From NCBI GenBank assembly GCA_002340085.1, contig DDKR01000153.1, positions 1-35,758 of the forward strand: a DNA stretch of 35,758 nt, in the 5' to 3' direction. The DNA comes from Candidatus Omnitrophica bacterium UBA2593 (GTDB lineage Bacteria > Omnitrophota > Gorgyraeia > Gygaellales > UBA2593). A model generated the notes under the pieces. That model was not told the origin of the DNA and did no database searches. It saw only the letters and a program-made list of their open reading frames with translations. This document shows positions 18,001-35,758 of the stretch, one piece after another (within the stretch, counting starts at the first letter, position 1; each line of letters opens with the position of its first letter). Position numbers and translations under genes: made by a program.

Positions 18001-21000
18001 AATGAGATGGATTGGAAAGGTATTATCACTAGTACTTGGCTTTGCTCCATTTCCATTAGGAATTATTCTTCCATCAGTGAAAATGAAAGGGGAGAAGGAA
18101 AGAGGAGTAGAGTTTGTTTCTTCCTTCCTCCCAATCTTTAATGATTCTCTGCTGGTTATTATGCTCGAGGAGGGAGCTAAGAGGGCAGTACTTCCGCTTA
18201 TCACTGAAGCCACCCCTATTGATGGTCTATCTTATCTCTTAATCAATGAAAAGAAAGAGTTTAGAAGAACGCTTACTACCCCCAGATCAACAACAGAAAG
18301 ATTTGAAGGTGTTGCTTTGCCACCTTACTCTATTATTTCAATCCCTGCACTCTTTAATATGGTGGCATTATCTCTTCTGAACTTTATTCCTAAACATAAT
18401 ATCTTAGGCGTCAACAACCTTTCTGGTTTTCTCTTACCAGTATTAACTGCACAGAAGAGAGATCAACGTTCTCTATCAATGGAGCAGCAGCGACTTGGAG
18501 TCTTGGAAATGGCTTTAGGAGCCCTGTTGTTAGCTATGATGAAAGCCTCTTCTTCATTGACTAATAGGCTGCTGGTGGTGATGTTCAATAGAGATAGTTT
18601 GCCGACTCCTCAAGGAGATTCTCAACAGAACCAACGGTCACAACGGCCAATTGGAATGCCACCTACAGGATCATCATCAATAAATGTAGGTGCAGTGGTG
18701 GGGAGTAGGAGTCAATCGACACCAGCACCATCAGAAATTAGTACAAGTCCATTAGATCCCAGTAAATTGGCTCAGATTGAAGATATAATAAACACTCTGC
18801 GATCTTTCATTGGAATGATATTAATGCGTGCTGGACCCATAAGTTCTGCGACAGCGTCATCTTGCGCAGACGCTCAGTCGCAAATAATAGCGCAAAATTT
18901 AGCTGTAATAGCTGTAATAATATTAGCTATATTAGGGAAGTGGAATAGATGTGAAGGAACCGGGAATACCCAAGGTCTGCCTGTAGGTGCAGATAGTCGA
19001 GGTATAACTGGAGATTCCGGAAAGAACTCTAAAAACAGATTCCGAGGTTCCAGTAGTGCGATTTTAGGTGAGCGTATAGCGGATAGCGTAGAGGATAGAG
19101 CAAGTATAAATACGTCTTCATCTCTAAATAATAGACCTCAGAAAGATCTCGCAGGAAACCATAGTTCCCTTAGTCCGCCTATACAGAGAAATGGTTCTCA
19201 AAGCTTAGGTAAATGGTCTAAGTTAATTATTCCTGAACTTGTCAGTGGGTTTAAGCGTCTTATTAATATAATTCTATCCACTCTATCCACAGAACCCCAG
19301 CGCCATTTTTCCAATGTTCTATCTGCGGTGGCAGTTTCAGGATTAAAAGTTAATGAGAACCTATTTCAGGCTACCATTCCTCCAGGAATTTTTGGGGGAG
19401 TCTCTTTAGCTATCCTTGGTTTGTTATTCATAGCAACGCTTGTAGGAATTGCTTATATAATTTTCAGCGCCAAGCCCCCAGCACAAAGTATTGGGGGAAA
19501 TACTTCTCCGCCATCTACTCTGAAAACTCAAGGTGTATATGGATATTCAAGGAATCCTCTATATACACTCTATCTTCTCTTGGCGGCGATTCTTACTATA
19601 TTTGGAATAGATGGTTTTGCTGAAGGGAAAGCTTGGGAAGGAGCCATCCTTATAGGTGTTGCAGTCTTCCTTACTCTTCCTTCTCTATTTTACCTTCCAA
19701 AAGAAGAGGGTGAATTACTATCTAAGTTTGAAGAGGCGTATAAAGAGTATAAAGAAAAAGTTCCACGTTTTGTCTCAACAAAGGTAGCGATTTGCACCTG
19801 CTCCATTTTATTATTCTTACTCTTAGGAACACTTGGTTGGTTAGATAGATGGGTTGATTCCATTGTTGATTTTATTACTCTGACCGTGACATTATCCTTG
19901 TTCACCTTATTCCCGTTATTCCTGCCAAGAATAACCACATCCTCATCTACAAAATTAATGGAGAAGGACTCCAATCAGATTAATGACTCTCCTCGGGCAA
20001 ATTCACCACTTACTATCTCCAACCTTGCCAGAAATTCAGTTCATCATCTAATTTTTCAGTTTAAAAAGATTCTTTTTGTGATTGTGATATCGTTTAAATT
20101 GCTAGTATCCGGCTATAATTTTGCTGTTCCTAATGCATTCTCGTCTCCTCCATCTGTTCCACCCGCTCAAGTACAAGTAGTAGAACAATTTTCTATTTGT
20201 GAGGCTTTAGGAGAGATAAGACAACTTGAAGGAATAGAGGTAGTTTATCTTGATGAAAAGAGGGTTTGGATTTTGATTAAAGAGAAGGGAAATTTAGAAG
20301 AATTAAAGCCAAAGATAGAAACTTTACTTAATAAGACAGGGTTATTCTGGAGAGGAGAAGAAGAAATTAATCCTGTCCCATTCAGATACATCTTTACAGT
20401 ATATCCCAATGTAGAAAAGGAAGAATTAGAGGTAAAGATAAAACCAAGGAATAACACGGTGGTTATTATTCAAGGAGAGTGGGCAGTGACTAGTGCTACT
20501 GATGAAAATTACAAGTTAGCTACTTGGGGTCTTGGTTCGTGTATTGGTGTATTGATATACAATCCTACTACTAAGATTGCGGCCATCACCCATGTTGATT
20601 TCGAAAATGCAGTCTTTTCTACTGTAAAAGAGATGCTTCTTGCAATAAGGACTGAAGGAAAAGATGAGATTCAAATATGGTTCACCGATAATATAGGTGA
20701 AATGGAAAAAACAGTAATCATCAGTCAATATAATTTGGACTATCGAGGTGATTTGCCGCGATCATTCGTGTTTGATACCAGAAACAGCGGACTTAGAAAA
20801 CTTTCAGAAGAGGAGATTAAAAGACTTGCCAACGATGAAACTTTAGATAAAAGACTAGGTCAAATAACCGATAAAAGAATAAAGAATTCAATTACATCTT
20901 GTATAGAAAGGTATGATGGTACTTCGTCTCCAATAACAAAAGGAAGGAGAACTTCTAAATCCAGAGGTCCCCAAAACGAAAGAAATCTTTTGTCCAGCAG

Positions 21001-24000
21001 AGGAGGATCTTCTAGTGCGATTGAGGTTGGGAAGAAAGGGATAGAATCGCTGTTGAATGGTAGAAGCACGCTATTTTCTTATTCTAATGAGCAAAAGAAA
21101 TCTAACCAAAGAAGTTGTTCTCCTCTTCGCGGTCCACCCAAAATTGGTGGAATTGGTAGCCTCGTCTCAACAGTTCTCGCCACCATCCTATTACCCGCAT
21201 TAATACCCCTTGCAATCATTGCTGGATTATCTTCCATTATTTCTGGTCTAATAGTTCAAAAAGGAATAATCAGTCTACCATTTCTCTTTGGGCTCACCGT
21301 GGAAGTCTCAAGAGAGATGGTTTTTGTTGCAAATGGGGTGTCCGTAGGAGTCCTAACCTCCAGGATGGCCCCTTCTACGGACCCCATTGCAACTATTATA
21401 GGAGGTGCATTATGTGTCCTATCAAGTTTGATAAATTACAGTTTGACCATATTGTCGAGTTTACCAATGATAATACTATCTTTGCTGCAGCCCGCCAAAA
21501 CAGTAGTCATAACAGCAATGGCCACCTTAGGCTATTTCTTATTAACCAGTCCACTGGCAATGTTTATTGTCGCAATGGTTGTGCTGATTCTTGGGAACAG
21601 CTTAGAGGCTCTACCCGTGATACCGTTATTGCTCAACTCATCGCTGCTCGCAACAACCATATCCCAGTCTATAGAATTAACGGGGGAGGGCTTCAATCGG
21701 ATTGAAGCCCCTTCTCCAGTTCAACCTGCTCTTGAAACCACCTCCAGTTCGATACAAAAGGGATCCCAGTTGAGTTTGTTTAAGAAAATATCTTCTGTCA
21801 AGAAAGGGAAATCTTATCCTTTTATAATTGCAGTAATACTTCCCATTCTTACATTTTTCCCCATCGTCAATACTTACCAACAATATAAGGTTAGCTATCT
21901 AAGAGATAAGGAGGCAATAGAGAAACTATTAGAGGAGAAATCAGATTTGCTTCATTATTATCATTCACATTTATCTTTTTCTAACATCCGTAGGATTTTG
22001 AAAATATGGATCAATTCTCTTTATCAAAATTCTGAACAAAAGAGAGAATTTCTAAAACATCTTTATAGATGTAAGTCTGTTGAGGAGATCATAGCTAATG
22101 ATAAATTGCCTGCCTTGATAAGGCTTTATGTAGGAGGGTTTATTAAAGGCGATGTATATGGCAACCGCTATCAATTATATCCAATAGCAAAACAACTCTT
22201 AAAGGAGACAGAAGATGAGAATATGTGGAAGTTACTTGCTTATCATAATAAAGTTACATCTCTTGGGAAAGTTACATCTCTTGGGTATAAGAGTATATTG
22301 TGTGATGATATAGTAAGAACTTATAGTCTTGCAGTGTTATTAATAATCGACCAAGAAATTCTAACAATTACAGAAGAAAAATTCCTAACAGCTATGGAAT
22401 ACATAAGATCTGCTCAGGTGTGTGGAGAAGCTCAGTCTTATATAATCAGAGCAAATAGAGAGTTAGTATTTGGAGGCAAAGAAATAGAAAAAGATAGGAA
22501 TATTAAATTCTTCTCAGGAACGATTGCTCATGAGATAGCACATATAATTGCTTATTGGCCCATCGAGGTCAGAGAAGTCGATGAATTCTTCGCAGATTTA
22601 GTTATGTTTGTCTTCTTCGAAAAAATGGGTTGGAAAGAAGATATTTGGATGTCTCAGCAAATGGTAAATTATAAGGAGGCTGTAGAATACGCTAAAGATA
22701 ATGGATGGGTAGTAAATAAGAAAGAACCACATACTATTGCGCGCACACAATTAAAGGTTATAGAAGATGCTATTAGAGAATATGAGGGCGAGGTATCTTG
22801 GGAAGAGATTCTTAAAGCTGCTTTAGATCCACGTTGGACGGATAAAAATCGCAACCGGTCGATAAATAATGGCTTAAATCTTTTCAGAGGTAATTCTATT
22901 GGCGATCTGTTAAACTCGAACTTAAAAAAGAAAATAACAAAGCGAATAGCTCAGTCTTATCCAGAAAAAGACTCTCCTATTTGGATAATAGCTAACCATA
23001 TGCTGGATGAAATCCTGAAAGATAATCACAAAAAGGATAGTATTGGAGAAAGGACAGGATATGGTAAGGTTAGGATTTATCGACCTCGAAGTAGATATAA
23101 AATAACATATAAGCAGGAGAAGGACGCAACAGTAATAATAAAGACAGATAGAGTAACTGGTAGTAAGGTAATTTCCCGCTATCCTACTAAGCCTATTCAA
23201 TACAGGAAGTCAAAGAATAAACCCTTTAGCTCTTCTCCTGTCGATACTTGGGCTATCGCTATAGGTTATGAAGGATTAGCTGGATTGTTTAATGGAATAA
23301 TTGATCTATTAAACCAACTATCTCTCTTATGGCTTGCCGTGGAGGCCTTAGGAGAGATGGTTTTTGTTGCAAATGGGGTGTCCGTAGGAGTCCTAACCTC
23401 CAGGATGGCCCCTCCTACGGACCCCATTGCAATTGGAGGAGGTGCATTATGTGTTCTATCAAGTTTGATAAATTACAGTTTGACCATATTGTCGAGTTTA
23501 CTAATGATAATACCATCTTTGCTGCTGCTCGGCAAAATGGTGGGTATAACGGAAACGGGCATCTCAGACTATTTCTTATTAATCAATCCACTGGCAATGT
23601 TTATTGTCGCAATGGTTGTGCTGATTCTTGGGAGCAACTCACTGGTTCTACCCGTGATACCGTTATTGCTCATCTCATCGCTGCGAAGAACAACCACATC
23701 CCTGTCTACAGGATTAATGGAAAGAGCCAGCAGTAGTCTACAGACCCAATCTACTTCTTCGCCACTGCACATTTTAGTCTTTGGCCCAGAACATTTAGCC
23801 CCGCAAATAAAACGCAAGATTAAAGAGAGATTTAAACAGATTGAGATTACCACCGTCGGAAATTATAATAGCTTTTTAGTAGACTTCGGTAAAAATAGAT
23901 TTCAGTTACTTATTATCGACGGTGTTACATTAAGTGTTACATTAAGTGAAAAAGGAGAAGTATGGGAGGAACTCGAAAGATTAATTAAAAAAGTAGTTGA

Positions 24001-27000
24001 GAAAAAGAGCAGACCAAGGATTATTATTCTATGTAGTAAAGATCTTGAACAGAAGATAGAGAAACTTAAGGAAGAGCATTCTTTAAAGATTGTATTTGTG
24101 GAGGACTATCCAGCGGGGAGCAATGTAAAAGGGTTTCTTGAAAGAATAAGAGAAGAACTGCACTTAAAAAAAGTAAGTTCACCACTGGTTAAGAATGTTT
24201 CTATTCCGATAGATGTGCGGTTAACTAAGGAGAATAGAAGGGATAGAATAGAAGCAATTATGGGCTCGCTGGGAGGATCAATTTTAAGTTTAAGTTTTCT
24301 TTACCTTCCGTGGCCGGTGGTGAGAGGATTTTTCTTCTCAGCGGGCCTAAGAAAATATCTTGCTCTATTCACTAGGAGTCCATCTCTTACATTCGCTTGT
24401 TTAATAACTGCTTCCATCTTCCTCACTTCAATCATATTCTTAGTTCTCAATTCTCAACTATTAACTGGACTTTTAACCCCGCCACCTATCTTAAGAGCTA
24501 CCGTGGCAGTTGTCTTAGGATTGATGGCTTTTGTTGTAATTTGGGAGAGGTTGGCAGTCCTAAACCTCCAGGAGACGGCCCCTGTCAACCTCCCTATTAC
24601 AACTAATACAGGAGGTAAAGAAGGAATTCAAACTGAGACTCCCAATCTTATTACCTCCAATCATGCTACTTTATCAATTAAGTCTATTATCTCCAGTCCA
24701 GTGGCTTCGCCGCTCATTACCTCCAGCCCTACCATGACAGCCTATACTTTAAGAAAGGCAAATAATTTAAGGGAGGAAGATTCACCACTCACCACCCCCA
24801 ACCTTACCATTTCCAGCTCTGTTACCTCATTTGAGGAATTTCTTGCTGGTATAAAGAAGTTAGAGGAGTGTCTGAAGGTTTTAGAGGAGTATTTAAAAGG
24901 AGCCCTTATTCCTACTATAGAAAAGACTACGAGAGAGATAGTAGATATTTTCAATAATCCCTCCTTTAAAAAGACATTAAGCAAATTTTTAAACGAGGAA
25001 ATCACCCATGAAATAAAGGCTGACTTGACTATAGTATGTGGGTATTGCCAGTTACAGGCATCAGAAGAAGAGAAAGAGCGTTCTATAGAAAAGCTCAATT
25101 CAATAAAAGCGCGCTTGATTGAAGTTAAAATAAAAGAAATTCTTTCACATTTTTCTTCTAGAATGGGATGGAGTGTTTTGATTTTGGCAGAGAATACCCA
25201 GAGATTAGAAGAACTTAAGGCGACATTCTCAAAATTAGGTGAATCAGAGTTAGTAAGTAAGACAGAAGAAATAATAAGAATTTGTAGACAAGAAGTCACC
25301 CTTCAACAGAAAAGCGAGTCTTACCTCGAGGCTACAGAGATAATTAACTCCATCCAAGATAAGCTTTCACCCGAAGGAAGTCAAATTGAACCCTCCACAG
25401 CTCAGACAACTTCACCACTCAAGATTGCTTTTAGTCCAATGGGTTTGTTGTCAGTTAGAGTCAAAAGAGATATAATAGGAGCAATTGTGGGTCTGCTGGG
25501 AGGAATTTTAGGTTTTTTCTACCTCACGTGGCTGGTGGGGAGAAAATCTATCTTTCCAGCGGGCCTAGAAAAATATCTTGCTTTACTTATTCACAGTCCA
25601 CCTCTTACATTCAGCTGTTTAGTAGCTACTTTCATCCTTCTTAACTCAATAAACTCAATAGATCTATCTCTAATCCCATCCTCAATCTCCAATCCTCAAT
25701 TATTAATTGGATTCTTAACCCGGCCACCTATCTTAAGAGCTACCGTGACAGTTGTCTTAGGATTGATGGCTTTTGTTGTAATTTGGGAGAGGTTGGTAGC
25801 CTTAACCTCCAGGATGGCCCCTGCCAACCTCCCTATTACAACTGATGGAGGAGACAAAATTTCTTATTATTCCTTGAGGAATACTGTAGAGAGAGAGCTT
25901 AAAGAGAAAAGGCTTGATTGGTATTTTATCTTCAGGAGGATTAAAGACCAAGGTTTTTCAGCTGCTTCGCCTATCAGGATAAAGAATGTGGTAATAATAG
26001 GAGTTCTAATAGTAGCATCACTTTTTGGGTTGTTAAAGTGCAGGGATTTTTTAAGAAAGCAGGATGAAATGCTTGAGGCAATGGAGATTCTTCGGGAAGG
26101 AAGAGAATCCACTTTTGGTCCGAGTTTTGGCGTGCTTTCACCAGAAGCCTTAAAAGAATTGATAAACTCCAAAACCTCTTATTCTCATCCAAGGTCGGTT
26201 ATGGAGTTGGTAGATAAATTGGCTTCTCTCTTTGGTGTATCTCCTACTGATGAACAAAGGTATGATTGTTTACTGAAGATTCAGACGATGGAAGGAAAAA
26301 TCAACGGATACAAAGGTTATATTTCAGAATTAGAAAGACGCTTTGGTTTACCTTCTGGGATAATGGGTGCAATTATAAGAGCAGAGATGTTTGGCTTAGC
26401 ACCTTTTGAAGAATTCACTGATTCTATAGGAGGGGTACTTACAGGAAAGACTTCTATAGGTCCTACTCAGGTGAGGATAGATACTGTGCGGATGTTATAT
26501 CCAGAGTACAGAAAAGCTTCTAACTTCAGGATTACTCAACTTCTTCAGGATGATAAATTTGCCCTTGAAGCAGGAGCAAAATATATACAGTGGTTAGTTA
26601 AAAAGATGGGGTTAGATCTTAAGAATTCTGGAGATCGGTTAAGGCTTTGGGTTGCTTATACAGCAGGACATCAATCACCGGCTTTTAAAGAAATCAGAAA
26701 ACCTCCATTTAGAAGAAATTTTAAAAAGGAAGATTGGGTTGCCAATGAAGCATGGGCTTATGCCTATGTAGCGGAAGCATTTTGCCGATACTTATCTACA
26801 CGGGCTTCTTCTGAGGCCTCTTCATCTTCTGTGGCTGATGAGAAGAAATCTGTTTTCTTAAAAGGATGTCGTGCAGTTAGAATCACCAGTTTAGCATCAG
26901 CAATTTCATTTTTAGGAACAATTCCTTTATTTACTCCTTTGGTGTCTTTTGCTACGGTATTGGCGGTGGGGATAGCTGTTTATTATGGGATGAAGAAGAT

Positions 27001-30000
27001 TGTTGGGTTTGTTAAGGTTGGTTTGGTCTTTAATCCTCAGCAAAACTCAAGGAAAGATGAGCTTGACGAGACTGGAGTTGGAGCTGAGATTAAAGAATTA
27101 ATTGATAAGTTTGGGAGAGTGTTGGAGGAAGTTCTAATAGGGAGAGGAGATAAATATTCTGAAGATATTTTTGCTGAGCAGTCTGAGGTAGCTTTATTGG
27201 TTCAGTCTACAAAGCAAGTAGTAGAGATTGCTTGTTCTAAAGGTAAGACATATATCTTAGCTTTAGCAGCTCTAATCAAATACCGTACAACGGGTATTCC
27301 TTCCTTGGCCTTTGTTCCTGCTTTTGGTTTAGGTTTAGATGCCTTTGAGAAACACAGGATACATCAGATATTAGGTAAGGTTGATCCTAATTTTAAGGTG
27401 GGTTTGGTAGATTTTGCTGAGGGAAAGGGTAAAATCTATGATGGGGATGGCGAATGGAGAGAAGTTAGTATAGCTGAAGTTTATAGCAAGTGTGGTTTGG
27501 TCTATAGTACAGTAGAAGATACAGTGCATAATTATTTAAGCGAGCATCTATCCCGAGAAGATAGAGACTTAGCTTTAATTACTCGCAAATGGTGGGTATT
27601 CTTTGATGAAGTGCATTTGACTTTGTTGGGTGAGCGCTTAGGAAACCCATTTGTTATCTCTGAGATGACCAAGCAATATTCAGAAGTTGTAGAAGAAGCC
27701 AATGATATAGCAAGAGAACTTTATGAGTTAGTGGAAAAAAATGGGGCTCTTCTGAAGAGCGAATATCATAGGATAGATGAGAAGGATAGGAAGGTAAAAC
27801 TTACTAGAATAGGAAGTAAATTTGTAAAAGAAAGACTTAAAAAGACAAAGTTATTGAGAAATCGGGGTAATTGGAAAGACTTTGTAGATACTGCCTTATG
27901 TGCTTGGTTCTGTTATAAAGAAGGTAGAGATTATCTTCATAATCCTGGTTTACCAGAGGGAGAAGAGATTTCCATCATTAGAGAGAGTGGAGAGAGAGGA
28001 AAAGAATCTTACAGCCATGGTTTACATCAGGCAATTCGTGCTAAACACGGCTATAACCCATTCAGAGATGGAAAGACTATTGCCTCAATTATGTTAATGG
28101 GTTTCCTAAGTGATCTGGAAGTGGTAGAAGGTTACTCAGGAGTGAGCGGGACCATAGATAGAGAAATGGCAAATGCTTTAGGATTAGGGGTTCAGATTAT
28201 TGAAGAAAAAGAGAAGCCAAATATCGTTCAAGAAGGATTTATTCGGATGTCAGTAAAACCAGATATTCAAGGATTGGTAGAGATTGTAGTAGAAAAAGTT
28301 AAGAGAGGACAGCCGGTTTTAATAAGGGTAGAAGATATTTCTCGGGTTGAAAAGGTAAAGGAAGCTTTAAAGGTAGAAGGCCTGGAGATAGAAGTGAAGA
28401 GTTTAGATGCCAGGACTGAAGCTGGTGAGAGACAGAGAATCCTTGAGAGTGCAGGTAAACCAGGAGCAGTTACTGTTGTTACTGCTGCGGGCAATACAGG
28501 TATAGATATCAGTCTTATGGAAGAAGCGATTGAGAAAGGCGGTTTGACAGTTATAGCGTTTGGCCTCTTGGAAGACAGATTGCAAGAGATACAACTGATG
28601 CGACGGGCAGCAAGGAGGGGAGAACCGGGAGAGTTTATTGTTTTCGGTTCACTTGAAGATAGAGTAGTAAGGCTTTATGCTAAGGATTATATCCCGGTGG
28701 CTAAAGGAATTTTAGAGAGAGCAGCAAAAGGTGATAGAAAAGCTCAGATTAAAGTTAGAAAAGTGGTTATGCAATTGCGTAAGACAATTAAAGATGCGAG
28801 ACTTCAACAGATCAGAAGGAGAGTTAAGATAGAGCAAATGATTACCCAAGCTTGGCAGAGGCGTTGTAATTTGAGAGAGAACATTAAGAATGGTTTGCTG
28901 GTAGAGGCTGTGGCGAAACTGATCGGTGTAGAGTTGAATGAGGAGAAGAAAGAGCAATATCAACAAGCAGCTTTAGAATTACTAGATAGGTATTGGGTTG
29001 AGTTTATTGCACGGTGCGATGAAGCAAGATATCAGCTGCTCAATAGATTTGGTTATGATTACACAGAGTGTCAAGGTATTCTGCAATTTCCAGTTGATTC
29101 GCAGTATATGAAAGAGGTAGGTAGATACACCGACGAGTTTATGTATTATACAGAAGCTAATACTTTCCTCTATATGTTGAAAGAAGCAGGAAAGAGTTTA
29201 GATGATTTGAATCTTAAGAGATCCTTCATTTACTGGTTTAAGAGAGTAAGGAATTTTGTTGTCCAAAAAAGTCCAGTTGTTATAGCTGCTGTAATTTTAT
29301 CCTTTGTAGTCTATGGGTTATACCGTCTGAGTTTTGGTTTATTTGGGCTTATCTCAACTCCTACACAACCCTCTGGTTTTGCCCGGGTTTTGATTGATTT
29401 TATTGTTAGTCTGTCTGCTCTTAATCAGGTATCATTGGTTGCAATCATAGTGATTGCGATGGTCTTTCTCTTATTCATTAATCGCAACCTTATCTTTCCG
29501 GCTTTAGCTAAAGACAGAAGCGAAAACTCGTTATCCGATGCTCTGTTTGGAATAAAGACAGAAAACCAGAATTTGACTTCATTCTCCCTCGCAGTTTACA
29601 AGAAGGTCTATCCAGTTATTGCACAGATTAGTACAGGAGTATCTCTAGTTATATTCGGCTTGTCTATTTTCACTGGTAGTAATTTGCTACTGAGTACAGT
29701 AGCATTTATCTCTATCTTCGCTTTAGGACTAGCTTTAATTACTTTGAGTGATTCAGGGTTAAAGGCATATATAAGACAAAATAGGATTTCTCTGCCATCT
29801 ACCTTGTTTGGGAGTTACGCTTACTATTTTGCTTTTAGTATCTTGGTTTATCTGGGAGTAATCTTTGGATTAGGTTATTTTGGCATTACTCCTGTGGTTA
29901 TGGATATGAGTATCTATTTGAGTATAGTTATCTTAGGGGGTGGGCTCCTTGCTTATTTCATCTATATGATGAATCAGTATTTGGATAGACGGTTTAATGA

Positions 30001-33000
30001 TAAACCCAAGGAAGTAGAACGAGATGTCGCTTTTGCTGGCATATTAGGAAGTGGTGCTTTGGCGGGCTTACTTATACATCTCCAAGAGATGGAATTACTT
30101 ACCCCTAATACTATTTCTACTATTTACGCTTCAATTTGGCCGGCGGTTCAGTTAACTGTAATATTAATGTTTCCACTCGCCTTGGTTGTTTTAGGTAAAC
30201 TTATTTTTGGTATTACGCGTGCTCAGATGTTGGGTGAAAAGATAGTAGAAAATGACGGTGTGGTTTTGAAGAGAGGTTTTTCGGAGAGTGTAAGGGAAGT
30301 CTTAAGATTAAAGCATATCAAGACTTGTATTGGTGTGGTTTTACGGGCGTTGATAATAAACATTATTCCTACCAGTATTATTTTTGGTGGTCTGCTTTTC
30401 TTATGGAAGATCTATACTGATACAAATATCGCCTTGGGGCTATTAAATACAATTACTCCTTACTCTTTAATAATAGCAGGAGTTGTTTTGATTATAATTT
30501 TAGCAACTTTAGCATTTAGTCCTAAAAAGGTAAGTGTAGCAACTGGTACAGTGTTAGGTGTGGGTGCAGTAGGGGGTATGACTATGGTTCAACAACAGAC
30601 AGGGCAAATGATCGAATTTAAAGCCTATTGTGCTGAACTCTTCGGAATTTCTAGAGAAGAATTTAAAGATCCGCGGGTAAGGATAGCCGTAGAAGAAATG
30701 AGAAAAGAGATAGAAAGATTAAAATCAGCCACTAATGATTCTTCTAAGTCCGGAAGAACTACTACAGCTGGAGGTACGCAAGGTAATCAGACTACAAATG
30801 ATCCAGATAAGACTGAATCATCTAAAGTTAACTTACAAGAGCCTCCAAGAGGGGGAAAGATTGAACCACTGAAAGAAGGTCCAGGTAATACCTTCTCAAA
30901 AGAAAATCCTCACAATAAATCTCCACCAAAATCTCAAAGTAAATCCTTCCTACAAAAACTCACTTCTTCTCTCAAAGAGAGTTTGAATTCTTTGAGTAAT
31001 CTTTTCATACCTTCTCTTAATGCTGAAGAAATAGATAACTTCCACAGCACCAGAGTTTATACTGAGAATACCACCCCAGGAGTGGAAAGAGAAGATTGTC
31101 TTTCTTTACAAGAGCCAGTTAAATGGCATCTTCCAATTAAAGTTCCTTATACTCTAACCAATGAAGGTAAATTTGGTGCTTCCAGAGATAGAGATGAACT
31201 TAGTGAACCAGGTTACGGTAAGCCAGATGAGATACCTCATACTGGCCTTGACTTCTGTGTTCCAAAAGGAACGCCTATATATGCAGCTTTAGAAGGCGTG
31301 GTTATCTTTAGCGGTGAACTTAATGGCTATGGAAAGACAATAATCATCAAGCATTCAGAGGGATGTTATACCTTATATGCTCATAATCAGGAAAATTTAG
31401 CTAGAGAAGGAGAGAAAGTCTCTCAGGAGACAGTGATTGCTAAAGTCGGCCGGAGTGGTAATGCGGGACAAGTTGGAGAGATGCTTCATTTTGAAGTAAT
31501 AGAGTCAGAGGTTGAGCTAAGTAATTATCAGGGATTAAGAGAGACATTGGCTACGGGAAAAGCAAAATATCGCAATCCTGAGGAGGTATTGGGATTGACT
31601 ATTTCTGATCGGGTAGTGGAAAATGGTGATTTAACCTCAACATTAGAAGAAAAAGCGGAAAGCTTGAGGGAACTTTTGAATTCAGGAATAGAATATTACA
31701 ATCAAGGAGATTTTAAGACTGCTATAACGATTTTCAGTGAAGGCATTAATTTAAACCCTTCCTTCTCTGAGGGGTATTTTTGGCGAGGAGCTACTTATTA
31801 TCATTTAAAGCAGTATTATGAAATGATAGAGGATTTTAAAAGATCTGAAGAGGTTAAAGAGACCAAACGGGAAATAGTATCTTCTTACACAAAAGGAGAA
31901 ATTCTTATATATAATAGTGGTAGAGTTCTTGAGGGAGGAGATCTCCAAATCAAATCAGAAGAGTTATTTTCGAACTATTTATTTTCGAGTGTTTTAATTG
32001 AAGATGCTAAAAAATGGATAGAGAGACTAGAATCAGCTCGTCTTCAAAGTAATATTTCTAAACCAGAGGAGAAAGAAGGGCCGGTTATTTTCGTATTGGA
32101 TAAAGGTGTGAATGCAGATCTTGTTGGGGGTTCAATTAAAGGTATAGGGAATAAAGGAGATTTAATAACCTGGTTAAGTCATGGCACTTTTGTAGCAAAG
32201 GTTATTCGTGATCTGTCTTCAGCTGAGATTATATCTATTGACATAACGAGACAATCAAAGACAGGCCCCCTTTTCGTTACAGATACAAAGAAGATTTCCC
32301 AATCTCTGATTCAGATACTCGCCTATATGAAAGAGAATCCCAGGGTAAAGGTAATAGTAAATATTTCTTTCAGTGGATCTTTTGGAGACTTCAATGATCT
32401 TTTAGATGTAGTCTTAATGCAAGCTATTATCCAACAAGGTGGAGTTATTGTTGCAGGCGCAGGGAATGAGGGCACTTCTTTATCTCGAATATCCAGGTAT
32501 CCTGTTTGTTATCCGGGTGTTATTGGGGTAGGCGCGATTAAAAAATCAGGAAACAAGGCCGATTATAGCAATTGGTCTAATGGCCTTCTCGTTGCTCCTG
32601 GGTGGATTAATGGGAGTGAGGAATGGAAAAATTTAACCAAAGAAGAGTACGGATGCGATATTGAAGAAATATATGGTACTTCCTTTAGTGCTCCTTATGT
32701 TGCTGGTCTAATTGCTAAGATATGCGAAGAATTTGGGTTCACACCTCAGCAGGCATATAAGATTATTGAAGAGACTGCAGAGCCTTTAAAAGTTTTTGAT
32801 AATTCCCCGAATTATTTCTTGAAAAAAGTTGATCCTTTCCGAGCATTAAAAAGAGCAAGAGAAGAGAAATATTCCAAACCCGCATTGGAAAGGGTCGGAT
32901 CATTATTTAATTTTCTCTTTCCACCACCTCTTTATGCTACAGGAGTAGATAATTCAACTACTACAGAACAACCTAATCTTAATTTCAAACCCGTATCGGA

Positions 33001-35758
33001 AAAGGTTGGATTAATTTATGGAAAAGAAGGATTCTATGAGAGCGAGAAAGAAGGACTGATAAATGGTAAGAAATATAGAGTGATTGTCATAGAGCCTCTC
33101 AAGGAACAGCCGGTTACCCCGCAAGATGGTCAATTTAAGACAAGAGATGATTCTGGGAATCCCAAGGGTCTTAACAAATCTTCTTTAGATCTATTTGTTC
33201 AAAAGCAGGTCTCTAGAGTTTTAGATAAAAGCGCAATTTCTCACAAACCTTCTGGAATTGCTCCTAAAACCGGTCTTTCTCCACCAAAGGAAGAGACAAG
33301 AGGTATAAACCGCTACTTAAGTTCATTAGTTGAATCTATAGTTAATATAACCAAATCTCTACTCAATCCTTTTGTATCTTCTCTTTATGCTGAAGAAGAA
33401 ATTAGTTCCTTCCGAGACACTTCTGTGAAGACACAGCCCATGAGTAAGTCATACAGAAAAGATCAAAACCATCCTCCCACTCCGGGAGTGGAGAATAAAG
33501 GTTGTCCTCAAAATTCGGACAAAGAGCAAGCCATTATATCACCAGAAGAAAAGTTTACCAGTATTGAGGGAGCATTAAAGGCAATCGGTGGACCCTATAA
33601 TCTACAAGCAATGCACTTCTTAAAAGAGAATTTACCTAAATTAGATCCCAGTGATCCAGGAAGAGAAGCAGCTGTTGAGATGCTCATAACCTACATTGCT
33701 GAAGAGCAAACCATAAAAGCTCAGATAGAAAAACTTAGAGAAGAGTTAAGTTTAAAATATGAGGGAGAAGCAGTAAAGGCAGCTAAAAAGGGAGATTATC
33801 AAAAGGCATTTAAATTCTTTGATATAGCTCTGCAATTAGATTCAAAAAATAAATTTGTATATTATTATCGAGGAGAGATCTTGCGTTCTTTGGGTTGGTT
33901 TGAAGAAGGTCTCAGAGATCATCTAAAAGTAATTGAGATAGATCCTAGAGATCCAGAAGTATATCGCCATATTACTCAAACTTATAAAGCAATGAGAGAA
34001 TATGAAAAAGCTATTTTCTATTTAAAGAAGATGATGGAATTATTAGATTCTGAAGAGAACTTCGATTATAACCAGTATCTCTATACTGAGTATTATAGAG
34101 GAGAGCATCCTTTCGTAGATTGGTCAAATTCTATCAAAAGATTACAATTTATCGAGATGTGGAGAACATCTTTAGCTAATCTTTATGCATTGAAAGGTGA
34201 TTATGAGAAGGCAATTGAGGAATACAATAAAATACTTTCCAGATGGTCTGATTATTTTGAAGCTCTTAACGGAAGAGCTATAGTTTATTTTAAGATAGGT
34301 GAATATGAGAAAGGGTTAAGAGATTATGAAGAATTGAAGGAGAGGAGATTAGAGGTCTTTCCTGACTTGGATGAATCGGTCAGTAAGTACCTTAAAGAGA
34401 AAGGTTGGTATCGTCTCGAAAGAGAATTGATGAAAATTATTGAAGAGCCGCGAAGGTTCATCCAGAGTTTAATTCAAGTTTTAAAGGACAAGGTAGATGT
34501 AGTAATTATAGACAGTCTACAGAGATGGGTTGAGGTGTGTCAGGAAAAAGGAGTGAAATCACAAGCAGCATTCTATGACAACAGAGACAATAAGATATAC
34601 ATCTATGTGGGATATGTTCAGGCGGTTGTCTTGGCTCATGAAGTAGTCCACAGTCTCCAAGCCAAATACTTAGAAGGAGATGTAACTGTTGAAAATAATC
34701 CTATCATAGAGATTTTTAACAAGATTCATAATTTGGTTTATCAGACAGAAGATTCAGATTTGATAGCTGGATTAGATGCTATCATACATTATCTCTATTA
34801 TGATCATAACAATCCTCTTAAAGATATTTGGTATGCTTATCGGCAAGGCCATCTAACTTATGAACAGGCAACGGAATCTCTTTTGGAGTTGTTTGGAGGG
34901 AAGATAGAGGAAGAATCTATTAAGGAAATTTTAATGACTTCTGAGGAAGAAAAGATAAACCGGATGTTAGAGAAAAATTTTAAGTTATATATTTCGGCGA
35001 TTGATGAATTTCTTGCCTATGTATATAGCTCAGCTGTAAATTATGATGTACCACTTATCAACAGATTAAGTGGGGAGGAAGCCCAGAAGCTTGCGCAGAG
35101 TGGCTACATTCATCCTTCTTCTAAAAGAATTGATATCAATGCGGCAACAGTATGGTTTTTGAACAAAATTCAGCAGTATCCCGAGATTAAAGATACTTTA
35201 AGAGATTATTATGAGAAAATACTAGGCCTACCTCTTCCTTCCATAATTAGTCTAGAGCTGCTCTCCTCTACGATAGAGAGTCATTTACCTGGACCTGTGG
35301 CTTATGATATTTTCCCACTTTACCATCCTAAAGGGAATCTAGTCTCTCACCGGCTCAGTTCAATCCCAGATCAAATTCCTATTAGAAGCAACCTTCCAAC
35401 TTCTTTTGGCTTCTTTGATAATTCACCTAAGTATCAAACGATTAAAGAAGCAATTTCTCAAGCAGAGGAGATAATAACCGTACCAGAAGCTAGTAAGAGA
35501 TTACCTGTAGATGGTAAAGAGGTATCAGTAAGATACTTTGTTCTTCCTTTCTTAGGTAAAAGAGCACCTCCAGTATTTGTCCACGCAAAGTTTGAAGAAG
35601 ACATTTTAAAGATCTATTTTTCACGGGATACCTTCAAATTGTTCTCTGAACACTTTAAAGGAAAACCCCTGACTACTGTTCTCCTTGCAATTGCCCGCCA
35701 CGAATATGCAGAACTTGTAGAAGGAAAATCCCATCAAGAAGCAATCCAAGCACAGGAA
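2..35758 (+). CDS. Single uninterrupted giant ORF (frame 2), truncated by both window edges; 11,919 codons of a multi-domain, membrane-anchored giant protein
   Basis: Manual codon-by-codon translation of frame 2 over every line found only sense codons. The supplied ORF track (which accepts ATG/GTG/TTG starts) lists no frame-2 ORF, as expected if frame 2 never reaches a stop. Every recognisable protein motif in the window lies in this frame. Confidence 0.9.
980..1170 (+). other. Domain in giant ORF: possible transglutaminase-like / papain-fold cysteine peptidase core
   Basis: Peptide NASLGPCVKIHAELGEVAKKLGIDLEMVYVEGLEEPHVALYDPEKRRIIDVT. Cys codon 1016-1018, His 1106-1108 and Asp 1145-1147 have the order and spacing typical of transglutaminase-core proteins. 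Motif-level recognition only. Confidence 0.35.
1271..1550 (+). other. Domain in giant ORF: TPR-like helical repeats
   Basis: LAQFYLKVGNLGEAARWAEKAYREDKKTKELADIFNNLGNAYGRKEG ... LLHCYKRARELYKLEGDNERAAKLSELIKFL shows the small/large residue pattern of TPR hairpins. Confidence 0.45.
3203..3238 (+). repeat. In-frame 18-nt tandem duplication (RILTNK/RILTNN)
   Basis: cgtatacttactaataaa followed immediately by cgtatacttactaataat; 17 of 18 nt identical. Confidence 0.9.
3548..3583 (+). repeat. In-frame 18-nt tandem duplication (SKISSL/SKISSH)
   Basis: tctaagatttcctct occurs at 3548-3562 and again at 3566-3580, a period of 18 nt. Confidence 0.9.
3605..3649 (+). repeat. In-frame 12-nt tandem repeat, about 3.75 units (AQCA AQRV AQRV AQW)
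   Basis: gctcagtgtgct gctcagcgtgtt gctcagcgtgtt gctcagtgg read directly from the sequence. Confidence 0.9.
5880..9300 (+). other. Region in giant ORF: long Lys/Glu/Arg-rich, probably alpha-helical / coiled-coil spacer
   Basis: The translation is dominated by K, E, R, Q, L and A with heptad-like spacing (e.g. KQEVRQMREERKSKGEIKQAIQQKKKDIKEMG). No catalytic motifs were recognised. Confidence 0.4.
9560..11150 (+). other. Domain in giant ORF: SecA-like / DEAD-box-like ATPase motor, copy 1
   Basis: Walker A: VMASGKTLLGTMAL (SGKT 9611-9622). GISLYLTKNTPLVKQ...FGLKL parallels SecA GVHVVTVNDYLA...LGLSV. Walker B: LVVIDEGQNIFLN (DEGQ 9971-9982). Second RecA-like lobe: GKIIIGTLNLVKEGLNFGEGIDIY ... 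LQGFARNNRIKKGDMVYFFYSPREL, resembling SecA VTIATNMAGRGTDI ... [23 protein letters not shown]. Confidence 0.6.
15840..16100 (+). other. Domain in giant ORF: minimal zincin-like module with HExxH (HEIKH)
   Basis: YYSPTTSAYYVETKGTILYREGRNAWIRLHEIKHALDD. HEIKH is encoded at 15941-15955, preceded by a beta-strand-like stretch as in small HExxH metallopeptidases. Confidence 0.35.
17234..17299 (+). repeat. In-frame 15-nt tandem repeat x4 (IAELN), organised as a 33-nt super-repeat
   Basis: atagcagagctcaac / atagcagaacttaac / aga / atagcagagctcaac / atagcagagcttaac. Confidence 0.9.
17735..17900 (+). other. Domain in giant ORF: LysM peptidoglycan-binding domain
   Basis: IYTVKPGDSLWKLAKEHFGDGSDWRKILELNPQL...LTGEERIIIQP matches the LysM consensus YtVk.GDtLw.IA...yGdg..w..I...N. 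A hydrophobic helix (SIIIGLLLLSLLPL, ~17610-17650) precedes it. Confidence 0.7.
17990..20120 (+). other. Region in giant ORF: membrane-embedded block with at least 8 hydrophobic helices
   Basis: Helix-length hydrophobic runs include WIGKVLSLVLGFAPFPLGIILP, YSIISIPALFNMVALSLLNFI, LGVLEMALGALLLAMM, IIAQNLAVIAVIILAILG, IFGGVSLAILGLLFIATLVGIAYIIF, VAICTCSILLFLLLGTLGWL, IVDFITLTVTLSLFTLFPLFL and ILFVIVISFKLLV. Confidence 0.6.
19380..19775 (+). other. Domain in giant ORF: isoprenylcysteine carboxyl / phospholipid methyltransferase-like (ICMT/PEMT family) C-terminal core
   Basis: LKTQGVYGYSRNPLYTLYLLLAAIL ... LPKEEGELLSKFEEAYKEYKEKVPRFV matches the family signature G.Y...R(H/N)P.Y ... EE..L...FG..Y..Y...V.R..P, and sits inside transmembrane helices. 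Confidence 0.55.
20459..20740 (+). other. Domain in giant ORF: CheD-like (chemoreceptor glutamine deamidase fold) Cys/His module
   Basis: VVIIQGEWAVTSATDENYKLATWGLGSCIGVLIYNPTTKIAAITHVDF parallels the CheD N-terminus IGIGEYAV...TLGLGSCVAVC..D...K.G..AHVMLP. The candidate catalytic Cys codon is 20540-20542. Confidence 0.55.
21130..21300 (+). other. Region in giant ORF: hydrophobic helical hairpin preceding hairpin-element copy 1
   Basis: IGGIGSLVSTVLATILLPALIPLAIIAGLSSIISGLIV ... ISLPFLFGL. Confidence 0.5.
21326..21393 (+). promoter_or_regulatory. Conserved intragenic RNA hairpin, copy 1 (22 bp, 21-nt loop containing ACCUCC)
   Basis: Pairs: 21326-32 with 21387-93; 21334-37 with 21383-86 (A21333 bulged); 21340-50 with 21372-82 (G21338 and U21339 bulged). 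Loop is uccuaaccuccaggauggccc. GGAGGU at 21401-21406 is complementary to loop ACCUCC at 21356-21361. Confidence 0.6.
21412..21705 (+). CDS. Nested 97-aa ORF in the -1 frame (window frame 1), fully overlapping the giant ORF; unknown function
   Basis: Listed in the ORF track. GGAGGU lies 5 nt upstream of the ATG. A paralogue at 23449-23736 differs mostly at third codon positions of this frame (24 synonymous versus 8 replacement codons in the first 91). The globular-looking sequence MCPIKFDKLQFDHIVEFTNDNTIFAAARQN...VYCRNGCADSWEQL...IPVYRING has no family I can name. Confidence 0.6.
   Translation: MCPIKFDKLQFDHIVEFTNDNTIFAAARQNSSHNSNGHLRLFLINQSTGNVYCRNGCADSWEQLRGSTRDTVIAQLIAARNNHIPVYRINGGGLQSD
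22250..22285 (+). repeat. Perfect in-frame 18-nt tandem duplication (KVTSLG x2)
   Basis: aaagttacatctcttggg occurs at 22250-22267 and is repeated exactly at 22268-22285. Confidence 0.95.
22380..22700 (+). other. Domain in giant ORF: minimal zincin-like module with HExxH (HEIAH)
   Basis: IIRANRELVFGGKEIEKDRNIKFFSGTIAHEIAHIIAYWPIEVREVDEFFADL. HEIAH is encoded at 22529-22543. Confidence 0.4.
23366..23433 (+). promoter_or_regulatory. Conserved intragenic RNA hairpin, copy 2
   Basis: Same fold as copy 1, exactly 2040 nt (680 codons) downstream. The only internal substitution (U21374 to C23414) turns a G.U wobble into a G-C pair. GGAGGU at 23438-23443 follows the hairpin. Confidence 0.6.
23449..23736 (+). 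CDS. Nested 95-aa ORF in the -1 frame, paralogue of 21412-21705; unknown function
   Basis: This is the inner part of track ORF 23329-23736. The ATG at 23449 is homologous to the copy-1 start and keeps the same GGAGGUGCAUU-AUG context. The ORF ends at TAG 23734-23736, and the giant frame 2 remains open throughout. Confidence 0.6.
   Translation: MCSIKFDKLQFDHIVEFTNDNTIFAAARQNGGYNGNGHLRLFLINQSTGNVYCRNGCADSWEQLTGSTRDTVIAHLIAAKNNHIPVYRINGKSQQ
23770..24120 (+). other. Domain in giant ORF: possible degenerate receiver/flavodoxin-like fold
   Basis: The alternating strand/helix pattern HILVFGPEH ... FQLLIIDG ... RPRIIILCSKD ... KIVFVED resembles CheY-like receivers, but the acidic pocket is not evident. 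Confidence 0.25.
23924..23947 (+). repeat. Perfect in-frame 12-nt tandem duplication (VTLS x2)
   Basis: gttacattaagt occurs at 23924-23935 and is repeated at 23936-23947. Confidence 0.95.
24250..24620 (+). repeat. About 125-aa transmembrane module, copy A (paralogue of 25480-25860)
   Basis: MGSLGGSILSLSFLYLPWPVVRGFFFSAGLRKYLALFTRSPSLTFACL...PPILRATVAVVLGLMAFVVIWERLAVLNLQETAPVNLPITT aligns with copy B along its whole length. Confidence 0.8.
24533..24603 (+). promoter_or_regulatory. Conserved intragenic RNA hairpin, copy 3
   Basis: Pairs: 24533-40 with 24596-603; 24543-47 with 24590-94; 24550-57 with 24582-89. Loop is uccuaaaccuccaggagacggccc. GGAGGU lies at 24611-24616. The -1-frame stop UAA (24604-24606) abuts the 3' end. 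Confidence 0.55.
25480..25860 (+). repeat. About 125-aa transmembrane module, copy B
   Basis: IVGLLGGILGFFYLTWLVGRKSIFPAGLEKYLALLIHSPPLTFSCL...PPILRATVTVVLGLMAFVVIWERLVALTSRMAPANLPITT. The last ~115 nt are nearly identical to copy A, while the first part is clearly more diverged. Confidence 0.8.
25775..25842 (+). promoter_or_regulatory. Conserved intragenic RNA hairpin, copy 4
   Basis: Pairs: 25775-82 with 25835-42; 25785-89 with 25829-33; 25792-99 with 25821-28. Loop is ccuuaaccuccaggauggccc. GGAGGA lies at 25847-25852. The -1-frame stop UGA (25843-25845) abuts the 3' end. Confidence 0.55.
26340..26680 (+). other. Domain in giant ORF: lytic transglycosylase (SLT / goose-type lysozyme-like)
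   Basis: GLPSGIMGAIIRAEMFG (candidate catalytic Glu codon 26384-26386) ... TSIGPTQVRIDT ... DDKFALEAGAKYIQWLVKKMG ... RLWVAYTAGH follows the SLT pattern ES ... GLMQ ... N...G..YL ... AYNAG. Confidence 0.65.
27170..28680 (+). other. Domain in giant ORF: SecA-like ATPase motor, copy 2
   Basis: VEIACSKGKTYILALAAL (GKT 27242-27250). FFDEVHLTLLGERLGNPFVIS (DEVH 27605-27616) resembles SecA [33 protein letters not shown] (28019-28036) resembles SecA GLHQAIEAKEG. GQPVLIRVEDISRVEKV...LDARTEAGERQRILESAGKPGAVTVVTAAGNTGIDISL resembles GQPVLVGT.SIE.SE...LNAK....EA.IIA.AG..GAVTIATNMAGRGTDI.L. GGLTVIAFGLLEDRLQEIQLMRRAARRGEPGEFIVFGSLEDRVVRLY resembles [47 protein letters not shown]. Confidence 0.8.
29275..30590 (+). 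other. Region in giant ORF: polytopic membrane domain with about 10-11 transmembrane helices
   Basis: Consecutive ~20-residue hydrophobic runs include VIAAVILSFVVYGLY, LVAIIVIAMVFLLFI, GVSLVIFGLSIFTG, VAFISIFALGLALITL, YYFAFSILVYLGVIFGLGYF, IYLSIVILGGGLLAYFIYMM, FAGILGSGALAGLLI, VQLTVILMFPLALVVLGKLIFGI, ALIINIIPTSIIFGGLLFLW, LIIAGVVLIIILATLAF and TVLGVGAVGGMTMV. Confidence 0.7.
31120..31600 (+). other. Domain in giant ORF: M23 (LytM/lysostaphin-type) metallo-endopeptidase
   Basis: IPHTGLDFCVPKGTPIYAALEGVVIFSGELNGYGKTIIIKHSEGCYTLYAHNQENLAREGEKVSQETVIAKVGRSGNAGQVGEMLHFEVIE. The HxxxD motif starts with His codon 31238-31240, and the LHFE motif contains His codon 31487-31489. Classic M23 order and spacing. 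Confidence 0.85.
31650..31850 (+). other. Domain in giant ORF: TPR repeats
   Basis: LLNSGIEYYNQGDFKTAITIFSEGINLNPSFSEGYFWRGATYYHLKQYYEMIEDFKRS. Confidence 0.65.
32080..32790 (+). other. Domain in giant ORF: S8 subtilisin-like serine peptidase
   Basis: Asp in VIFVLDKGVN (32099-32101), His in SHGTFVAKVI (32180-32182), oxyanion Asn in VAGAGNEG, and Ser in YGTSFSAPYVAGLIAK (32681-32683). This is the canonical D-H-N-S order. Confidence 0.8.
33740..34340 (+). other. Domain in giant ORF: TPR repeat array (about 5-6 repeats)
   Basis: GEAVKAAKKGDYQKAFKFFDIALQLDSKNKFVYYYRGEILRSLGWFEEGLRDHLKVIEIDPRDPEVYRHITQTYKAMREYEKAIFYLKKM ... LANLYALKGDYEKAIEEYNKILS ... ALNGRAIVYFKIGEYEKGLRDYEEL. Confidence 0.75.
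34540..34900 (+). other. Domain in giant ORF: minimal zincin-like module with HExxH (HEVVH)
   Basis: AAFYDNRDNKIYIYVGYVQAVVLAHEVVHSLQAKY. HEVVH is encoded at 34637-34651, in the same strand-then-HExxH layout as the modules at 15.9 and 22.5 kb. Confidence 0.4.

Follow-up and report, generated by a model that had tools for sequence, protein, structure and literature searches.

The contig analyzed here, DDKR01000153.1 from the metagenome-assembled genome of Candidatus Omnitrophica bacterium UBA2593 (35,758 nt in full, called the window throughout), is a fragment of one or several Omnitrophota giant genes. Its single open frame encodes a putative muramidase domain of the Tse3 family, a SecA-like ATPase, a large block of membrane helices, an M23 (LytM-type) domain and an intact S8 subtilase, together with TPR repeats and a LysM domain (Table 1). 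We read these modules as a wall-directed cassette of effector ancestry that would lie outside the cytoplasm and act on the walls of foreign cells once released or displayed at the surface, a tentative reading to which we give a probability of about 0.42.

Frame 2 runs from base 2 to base 35,758 without a single stop, 11,919 codons in DNA of ~37% G+C. The window is the entire contig (C114), which carries no gene besides the giant frame, and every module therefore lies in one reading frame; a preliminary description of this DNA, made from its letters alone, had already placed all modules on one polypeptide, and it was right to do so. The assignment to a giant gene follows from six further contigs of the same genome (1.30 Mb in 162 contigs, 86% complete) that are likewise open end to end in one frame each: C155, C38, C3, C24, C78 and C30, with 8,071, 4,997, 3,584, 2,612, 2,398 and 1,860 codons. 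Together with the window they amount to ~35,400 codons, so that the giant gene or genes, when complete, may be over 100 kb long. Other genomes of the phylum have homologous modules in open frames of 6,500-43,000 codons. The window also shows the other features by which Omnitrophota giant genes are recognized, namely many membrane helices, a divergent SecA-like domain and an Omnitrophota origin, in addition to the very long frame. Elsewhere in this 1.3-Mb genome, LysM occurs again on contig C155, and there are five secretin genes, one of which (C29:22144-22626, minus strand) lies directly downstream of a 2,862-codon open frame (C29:22662-31247, minus strand).

One domain was first called an SLT lytic transglycosylase (26340-26680). 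This region scores 14.3-15.1 bits against Pfam SLT PF01464 (cut-off 21.3), over profile positions 57-100 only, and as a single-sequence query it found no match in the PDB. By itself the Pfam score is not significant, and an SLT call made from it alone would not stand. When aa 8690-8950 were searched exhaustively by HMMER against 1.84 billion representative proteins, only nine relatives were recovered (E 4e-7 to 6e-4). The closest are partial proteins from Candidatus Omnitrophica/Omnitrophota metagenome-assembled genomes, and one of the nine is an Rhs-core protein with the Tse3-like domain as its C-terminal toxin. In the alignment of the window with these nine relatives (A1, ten sequences), E, E, D, T, G, Q and Y are invariant, and the invariant columns coincide with E250, E258, D262, Q280, Y376 and the motif-2 Gly of Tse3; the equivalent of S275 is conserved in at least 90% of the sequences and present in the window. 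Used as a profile against the PDB, A1 retrieves six Tse3 entries at E 2.2e-25, with MltC/MltE at ~2e-3 to 5e-3 and goose-type lysozymes at 0.05, and a narrower profile (A2), built from the window and the three relatives closest to it, gives Tse3 at E 2.8e-14 and MltE at 0.12. Compared pairwise by BLASTP with residues 225-384 of Tse3, the window domain yields E 3e-7. Eight of the ten family members match Pfam T6SS_Tse3_cat (PF22115) at E≤1, and the full-length nearest large relative, P0003, reaches 27.3 bits on that profile (cut-off 27).

Tse3 of Pseudomonas aeruginosa (PDB 4M5E, 4N7S, 3WA5, 4LUQ) has an SLT fold and acts, by means of Glu250, as a muramidase and not a lytic transglycosylase; its conserved residues include Ile246, Gly276 (the motif-2 Gly, in the paper's numbering), Gln280 and Tyr376, and near the active site it holds two Ca ions bound by Asp253, Gln254, Glu258, Asp262, Ser275 and Gln280 (PMC3792639). 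In the window, the motif residues Ile246, Glu250, Gly276, Gln280 and Tyr376 correspond to I8791, E8795, G8820, Q8823 and Y8886, with the putative catalytic Glu, E8795 (nt 26384-26386), lying within AIIRAE, at the end of the first helix, where family-1 lytic transglycosylases have theirs. Four of the six Ca1/Ca2 ligands have equivalents (E8803, D8807, S8818 and Q8823, for E258, D262, S275 and Q280), whereas Gly and Leu stand where Tse3 has Asp253 and Gln254. Unlike Tse3, a 400-aa secreted effector delivered by a type VI system, the window domain has no Tse3 N-terminal domain and is embedded in a membrane-threaded giant protein. Profile homology to Tse3 shows a real SLT-fold domain of the Tse3 muramidase family; with the Rhs toxin among its relatives, it is a divergent member of a family otherwise known from antibacterial effectors. 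The SLT call of the preliminary description thus holds at the level of the fold, through Tse3-family profiles and not through PF01464, where the match stays below threshold; the label "lytic transglycosylase" is unsupported because Tse3 is a hydrolytic muramidase (PMC3792639). An AlphaFold2 model of the domain, made without an alignment, had a mean pLDDT of 48 and was unusable.

The M23 domain has a clear PF01551 match at nt 31235-31510 (E 2.9e-27, 95.1 bits, cut-off 28.7). All three zinc ligands are present: H10413 and D10417 of the HxxxD motif, which reads HTGLD, and H10496, the second His of HxH. H10461, equivalent to His260 of LytM and read as YAH, is retained as well. The first His of HxH, equivalent to His291 of LytM, is Met 10494 (nt 31481-31483), so that in the HMMER alignment to solved M23 enzymes the window reads GEMLHFEV against a consensus of G-P-H-L-H-F-E. 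This first His is no zinc ligand and is thought to activate the water nucleophile (PMC4594094, PMC9662197), and Ala in place of either catalytic His abolishes the activity of LytM, lysostaphin, LasA and Ale-1 (PMC4594094). The substitution is not peculiar to the window sequence. Contig C3 of this genome carries another giant-gene M23, 43% identical, that reads GNMLHFEI, and the giant-frame M23 domains of genomes G057, G265, G224 and G189 carry Met too, while G155 has Thr and G416 has His; Met therefore occupies this position in six of the eight giant-gene M23 domains sampled. A small M23 gene of the same genome retains the His (PHLHFEV). Twelve small M23 genes of this order whose zinc site is complete have, at this position, His in seven cases, Leu in four and Ile in one. 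Since Met, Leu and Ile recur here with the zinc site kept, the lineage tolerates loss of the first HxH His.

Some further observations concern these M23 genes. The 12 small genes with a complete zinc site (loci L035-L059) are 163-222 aa long, and the same loci hold a separate class of 220-260-aa M23 genes that is fully degenerate (N/G, N, R, Y, H). At locus L064 (G224:C5, frame +0, aa 3130-3325), the giant frame that carries M23 stops ~80 codons past that domain, beyond which a 2,752-codon frame goes on in frame +2; the break may mark a real end of the gene, or may come from a frameshift or an error in sequencing.

The subtilase matches PF00082 over nt 32081-32788 (E 1.6e-19, 70.8 bits, cut-off 21.8), and its triad and oxyanion Asn are intact: D10700, H10727, N10822 and S10894. 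Of these, N10822 and S10894 were aligned to subtilisin BPN' by HMMER and all four by MAFFT. Its best likeness in NCBIfam, far under the cut-off, is to the membrane-anchored, secretion-associated mycosins. LysM matches PF01476 at E 8.5e-7, with 29.3 and 35.3 bits (cut-off 20.9). The preliminary description had named M23 (31120-31600), S8 (32080-32790), LysM (~17.7 kb) and TPR repeats, and all four are found there above Pfam thresholds; it had also described the hydrolases as separated by TM blocks and TPR arrays, and Pfam does place TPR between M23 and S8, with hydrophobic blocks on either side of the modules. Its catalytic residues fared unevenly on alignment, the Tse3-like Glu and the S8 triad being present and the first HxH His of M23 absent; since that description had named absent catalytic residues as a refutation, it fails here in part.

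Short junction motifs surround the peptidase modules. Three copies (30983-31030, 32897-32941 and 33353-33397) follow the pattern L.N.F...(S/P)L(N/Y)A, then EE or TG, and bracket the M23-TPR-S8 cassette and the next module. These copies are candidate processing sites for the adjoining subtilase. They were also considered as a general feature of giant genes, an idea that was dropped: the three occurrences all lie within the window, and the motif was not found in the genome's other giant fragments, nor adjoining M23 in G057 or G265. Past a second TPR array (aa 11390-11444, Pfam), the unannotated C-terminal region holds an HExxH motif, VLAHEVVHSL (window 34628-34657, aa 11543-11552), and a further HEYAE stands at the extreme end of the window. 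The region from aa 11460 to 11919, HExxH included, has no Pfam or PDB match; it may be another, unrecognized metallopeptidase module.

Table 1. Features of the window, with the evidence for each
Feature	Position (nt)	Strand	Evidence
Giant-gene fragment, open at both ends	2..35758	+	frame open throughout, 11,919 aa
LysM peptidoglycan-binding domain, aa 5914-5948, between two hydrophobic segments	17741..17845	+	PF01476
Signal-anchor-like helix, aa 8660-8678, IKNVVIIGVLIVASLFGLL, after ...ASPIRIK	25979..26035	+	hydrophobicity, sequence
Tse3-family (SLT-fold) domain, putative muramidase	26294..26821	+	profile searches, BLASTP, residue alignment
36-aa hydrophobic stretch, aa 8962-8997, one long helix or hairpin	26885..26992	+	hydrophobicity
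SecA-like ATPase (DEAD-like, preprotein-binding, P-loop domains)	27242..29221	+	Pfam
Ten firm membrane helices, aa 9752-10173	29255..30520	+	hydrophobic segments, loop charges
Marginal eleventh hydrophobic segment, aa 10179-10196, VATGTVLGVGAVGGMTMV, Gly/Ala-rich, after loop PKKVS	30536..30589	+	hydrophobicity
Low-complexity Ser/Thr/Asn/Pro/Lys linker, ending in junction motif 1, LNSLSNLFIPSLNAEE	30590..31036	+	sequence
M23 (LytM-type) domain	31121..31600	+	Pfam PF01551, HMMER alignment
TPR repeats between M23 and S8	31667..31867	+	Pfam TPR_11/TPR_17
S8 subtilase	32078..32791	+	Pfam PF00082, triad alignment
Junction motif 2, GSLFNFLFPPPLYAT, directly after S8	32897..32941	+	sequence

Of 70 further genomes of the order, six have the Tse3-like domain. 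It lies each time in a frame of 6.5-38.7 thousand aa, and its companions there vary: LysM and M23 in G189, a canonical SLT in G095, Peptidase_M15 in G233 and RelA/SpoT in G157. In the frames of these Tse3-bearing relatives, wall modules are interleaved with cytoplasmic signaling domains. Canonical SLT is found in 12 of 40 other genomes of the order sampled, each at least 90% complete, with 13 hits, of which four lie in frames of 1,344-17,444 codons. This sporadic occurrence and the varied companions lead us to conclude that the wall-active modules are accessory and combinatorial, shuffled among giant genes, and not part of their core. The pairing of TPR with S8 is conserved in one relative (G061:C6). 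At locus L028 (G353:C36), an S8 domain (frame aa 387-529, 35% identical to that of the window) precedes the SecA-like ATPase with its helix block (888-1701), the reverse of the window's order. A colinear copy of the whole Tse3/SecA/TM/M23/TPR/S8 arrangement was sought elsewhere and none was found in 400 phylum genomes or in targeted loci; a protein search with the M23-S8 region returned four matches only and no colinear relative, and a single-protein search of genome contigs for related loci returned no match. The only named protein of comparable length that the M23-S8 query returned was a 2,818-aa Caudoviricetes "peptidase" with PF01551 and PF01464, as in phage virion proteins that join M23 and SLT. 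The match is weak (E 6e-8, 25% of the M23-S8 query covered) and fits the earlier remark that the cassette is phage-like, but it is unlike the window in having neither the SecA-like block nor S8, and the window has no phage context.

Which side of the membrane the modules face was judged from the SecA-like ATPase and the helices around it. The ATPase (PF21090 5.9e-17, PF01043 1.7e-10, PF07517 4.4e-7) sits between the Tse3-like domain and the large helix block, and is presumed cytoplasmic because its Walker A (GKT) and DEVH motifs require the ATP side. Loops of the ten-helix block strictly alternate between rich and poor in K and R, with 9, 6, 3, 5, 9 and 2 such residues per loop on the ATPase side (sum 34) and 2, 0, 0, 0 and 1 on the opposite side (sum 3). 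The block is homologous to blocks in G065, G368, G353 and G317. If the marginal eleventh segment is a real membrane helix, the M23-TPR-S8 cassette would therefore be outside. Weak segments equivalent to the eleventh close the homologous blocks of L026 and L028, and in the homologue L029 the block ends in a signal-like helix followed by a Pro/Thr-rich linker. In four relatives M23 starts a long helix-free stretch a few hundred residues past a helix cluster, and in one of these (G265) the stretch after M23 also holds LysM. From loop charges and homologous blocks, we judge the chance that M23-TPR-S8 faces outward to be about two in three.

For the Tse3-like domain, the guide is what precedes it. 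The signal-anchor-like helix lies ~100 aa before the domain, and the Omnitrophota relatives P0003 and P0008 carry a Tat-like RRxFLK signal at the equivalent position, ~100 residues ahead of theirs, which favors export of the domain. The side that it faces hinges on whether the 36-aa stretch after it is a single pass or a hairpin. For the hydrolases as a set, the distribution of charges and the homologues suggest an outward orientation. The preliminary description had asked for a check on whether the catalytic domains face outside the cell; loop charges and homologous blocks favor this for M23-TPR-S8, while the marginal eleventh helix and the ambiguous hydrophobic stretch hold it back. Tat-like sequences (S/T-R-R-x-F-L/I-K/R with a hydrophobic run) are also seen deep within giant frames, in P0003 at aa ~315-340, in P0008 at aa ~80-100 and in L020 (G157:C8) at frame aa 1330, often just past an "SSSPI" motif. 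These internal signals hint that a giant protein may be a polyprotein whose modules are exported one by one. The idea that RRxF(L/I)(K/R) signals are common in this genome's own giant fragments was dropped, since none were found there, only in relatives.

From the domain identities, the catalytic residues, the one open frame and the accessory, shuffled distribution, we infer topology, activity, release and target as follows. One Omnitrophota giant protein would thread wall-directed modules through the cytoplasmic membrane in the order signal-anchor helix, Tse3-family muramidase, membrane segment, SecA-like ATPase on the cytoplasmic side, 10-11 membrane helices, low-complexity linker, M23/LytM, TPR and intact S8, leaving the muramidase and the M23-TPR-S8 cassette outside the cytoplasmic membrane. 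There, the Tse3-like domain would hydrolyze the MurNAc-GlcNAc backbone of peptidoglycan, and the M23 domain would bind, and perhaps cut, peptide cross-links. The subtilase could trim proteins of the target envelope, or cut the giant polypeptide at the junction motifs to release modules. The most likely target would be the wall of a host or prey cell, to which the modules would gain access by being released or displayed on the surface.

Several observations weigh against this use on foreign walls. A domain tethered to the inner membrane reaches only its own periplasm and wall unless the modules are released. Topology depends on the marginal eleventh helix and on the ambiguous stretch after the Tse3-like domain: exactly ten helices would leave M23-TPR-S8 cytoplasmic, and a hairpin would put the Tse3-like domain on the ATPase side. 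The M23 domain has Met in place of a catalytic His, two of the six Ca ligands of the Tse3-like domain are lost, and the window domain itself has no PF22115 match at E≤10. The type VI sheath gene (VipB/TssC), through whose system Tse3 is delivered, was not found in the 86%-complete genome, and no Tsi3-like immunity gene is visible on the contig, which the giant frame fills. Finally, PrgK offers a precedent for a hydrolase that serves a secretion machine by opening the cell's own wall (bioRxiv 10.1101/2024.02.15.580431). On the whole, family ancestry and distribution favor the foreign-wall reading, whereas the membrane tether and the incomplete M23 favor an own-wall one.

This own-wall alternative is the one that survives best, possible although we hold it to be unlikely: the modules would make local gaps in the producer's own peptidoglycan through which the giant protein, or the pili and secretins with which it works, can cross the wall. 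Such local opening is carried out for secretion machines and flagella by PrgK, VirB1, FlgJ and EtgA. In its favor, the modules are tethered to the inner membrane beside a SecA-like motor and a polytopic block, the genome has its five secretins, and no canonical SLT, MltG or Amidase_3 was found in the assembled genome (86% complete). PrgK, from the type IV secretion system of Enterococcus faecalis pCF10 (bioRxiv 10.1101/2024.02.15.580431), is likewise associated with a transport machine and joins, in one membrane-anchored polypeptide, a degenerate LytM domain with an incomplete site to an SLT-fold muramidase whose activity that LytM damps; the window M23 is also catalytically incomplete. The likeness is in architecture only. 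The LytM of PrgK has no metal, unlike the window M23 with all its zinc ligands, and PrgK has a CHAP domain where the window has S8, is under 900 aa and comes from a Gram-positive. Against the own-wall alternative, the Tse3-like domain is sporadic, whereas SecA-like blocks, like giant genes themselves, have a much wider distribution; its family comes otherwise from antibacterial effectors; and the known gateway hydrolases lack an intact subtilase or LysM. The preliminary description had set the cassette apart from housekeeping autolysins. An effector-type family and an accessory distribution speak for that separation, and the same pairing of SLT-fold muramidase with LytM in PrgK, which opens its own cell's wall, speaks against it.

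Less probable still is that M23, and perhaps the Tse3-like domain too, are non-catalytic peptidoglycan-binding or regulatory parts working with LysM and TPR, leaving S8 as the sole enzyme, which would process the giant polypeptide. The recurrent Met at a catalytic position of giant-gene M23 domains and the two lost Ca ligands would fit such a role, as would the three junction motifs that flank the peptidase modules. Degenerate LytM regulators are well known, as in EnvC, NlpD and PrgK (PMC9662197), and S8 and C39 domains have been proposed to cut giant proteins into pieces (West-Roberts et al. 2023). However, classical degenerate LytM domains lose the metal site, whereas here all three zinc ligands stay conserved along with the second catalytic His, at identities of 43-60%, and five of the 12 small M23 genes with a complete zinc site lack the first His as well, so this lineage may simply accept other residues there. 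In the Tse3-like family, the catalytic Glu, motif-2 Gly and Gln and motif-3 Tyr are invariant, and the motif-1 Ile is present in the window.

A bolder reading, which we consider improbable as a whole, makes the SecA-like ATPase, the 10-11-helix block and the signal-like segment a built-in export unit for M23-TPR-S8, with the subtilase freeing the cassette at the junction motifs and the muramidase exported by its own signal-anchor. If this were true, an effector-type muramidase would be deployed in cis from one giant polyprotein, with no type VI system, and the giant genes would carry a previously unnoticed M23 subfamily of their own, HxxxD...H...MxH.

We find it very unlikely that the hydrolase domains are cytoplasmic and never meet peptidoglycan, as inert cargo or enzymes on cytoplasmic substrates: the ten firm helices are an even count, aa 8962-8997 are flanked by K/R on both sides as in a hairpin, and a 2026 Omnitrophota preprint predicts 46% of long proteins to be membrane-anchored without a signal peptide and with the bulk of the chain cytoplasmic, but no cytoplasmic substrate is known for LysM, M23 or muramidase domains, a weak eleventh segment after a short K/R loop is conserved in three homologous blocks with an exported-type linker next to it, and Tat-like signals precede the Tse3-like domain in relatives.

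The general idea that Omnitrophota giant genes degrade cell walls is already published. West-Roberts et al. 2023 (bioRxiv 10.1101/2023.11.21.568195) described giant genes of this phylum with SecA-like, S8, C39 and occasional SLT domains and proposed wall degradation, and the preliminary description was correct that the window fits these earlier proposals. With these proteins ("Archaeovorin" and Dockerin types) the window shares a frame of tens of kb, many membrane helices, a divergent SecA DEAD/preprotein-binding domain without scaffold and wing domains, S8 domains, the occasional SLT and a proposed binding and degradation of walls; as it holds only a fragment, the comparison is by shared features and not by class. 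It is unlike them in that its glycan-cutting domain is specifically of the Tse3 type and its S8 is not near the N-terminus, and the main text of West-Roberts 2023 makes no mention of M23 or LysM, both present in the window. What is new is that the glycan-cutting domain belongs to the Tse3 family, that M23 domains of giant genes share a conserved Met variant and that the modules are, on the evidence given here, accessory and shuffled.

Giant genes take up a large share of the tiny Omnitrophota genomes, and their role is an open question. The window offers three handles on it: a small Tse3-like domain that has a defined putative catalytic Glu and whose family is known for killing bacteria; a peptidase-like domain in which nature has replaced a catalytic residue and conserved the change; and an intact subtilase beside repeated junction motifs that are candidate cleavage sites. 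These findings sharpen a published hypothesis and do not overturn current thinking, and the handles bear on whether the giant proteins serve as weapons, provide a passage through the wall of their own cell or are polyproteins.

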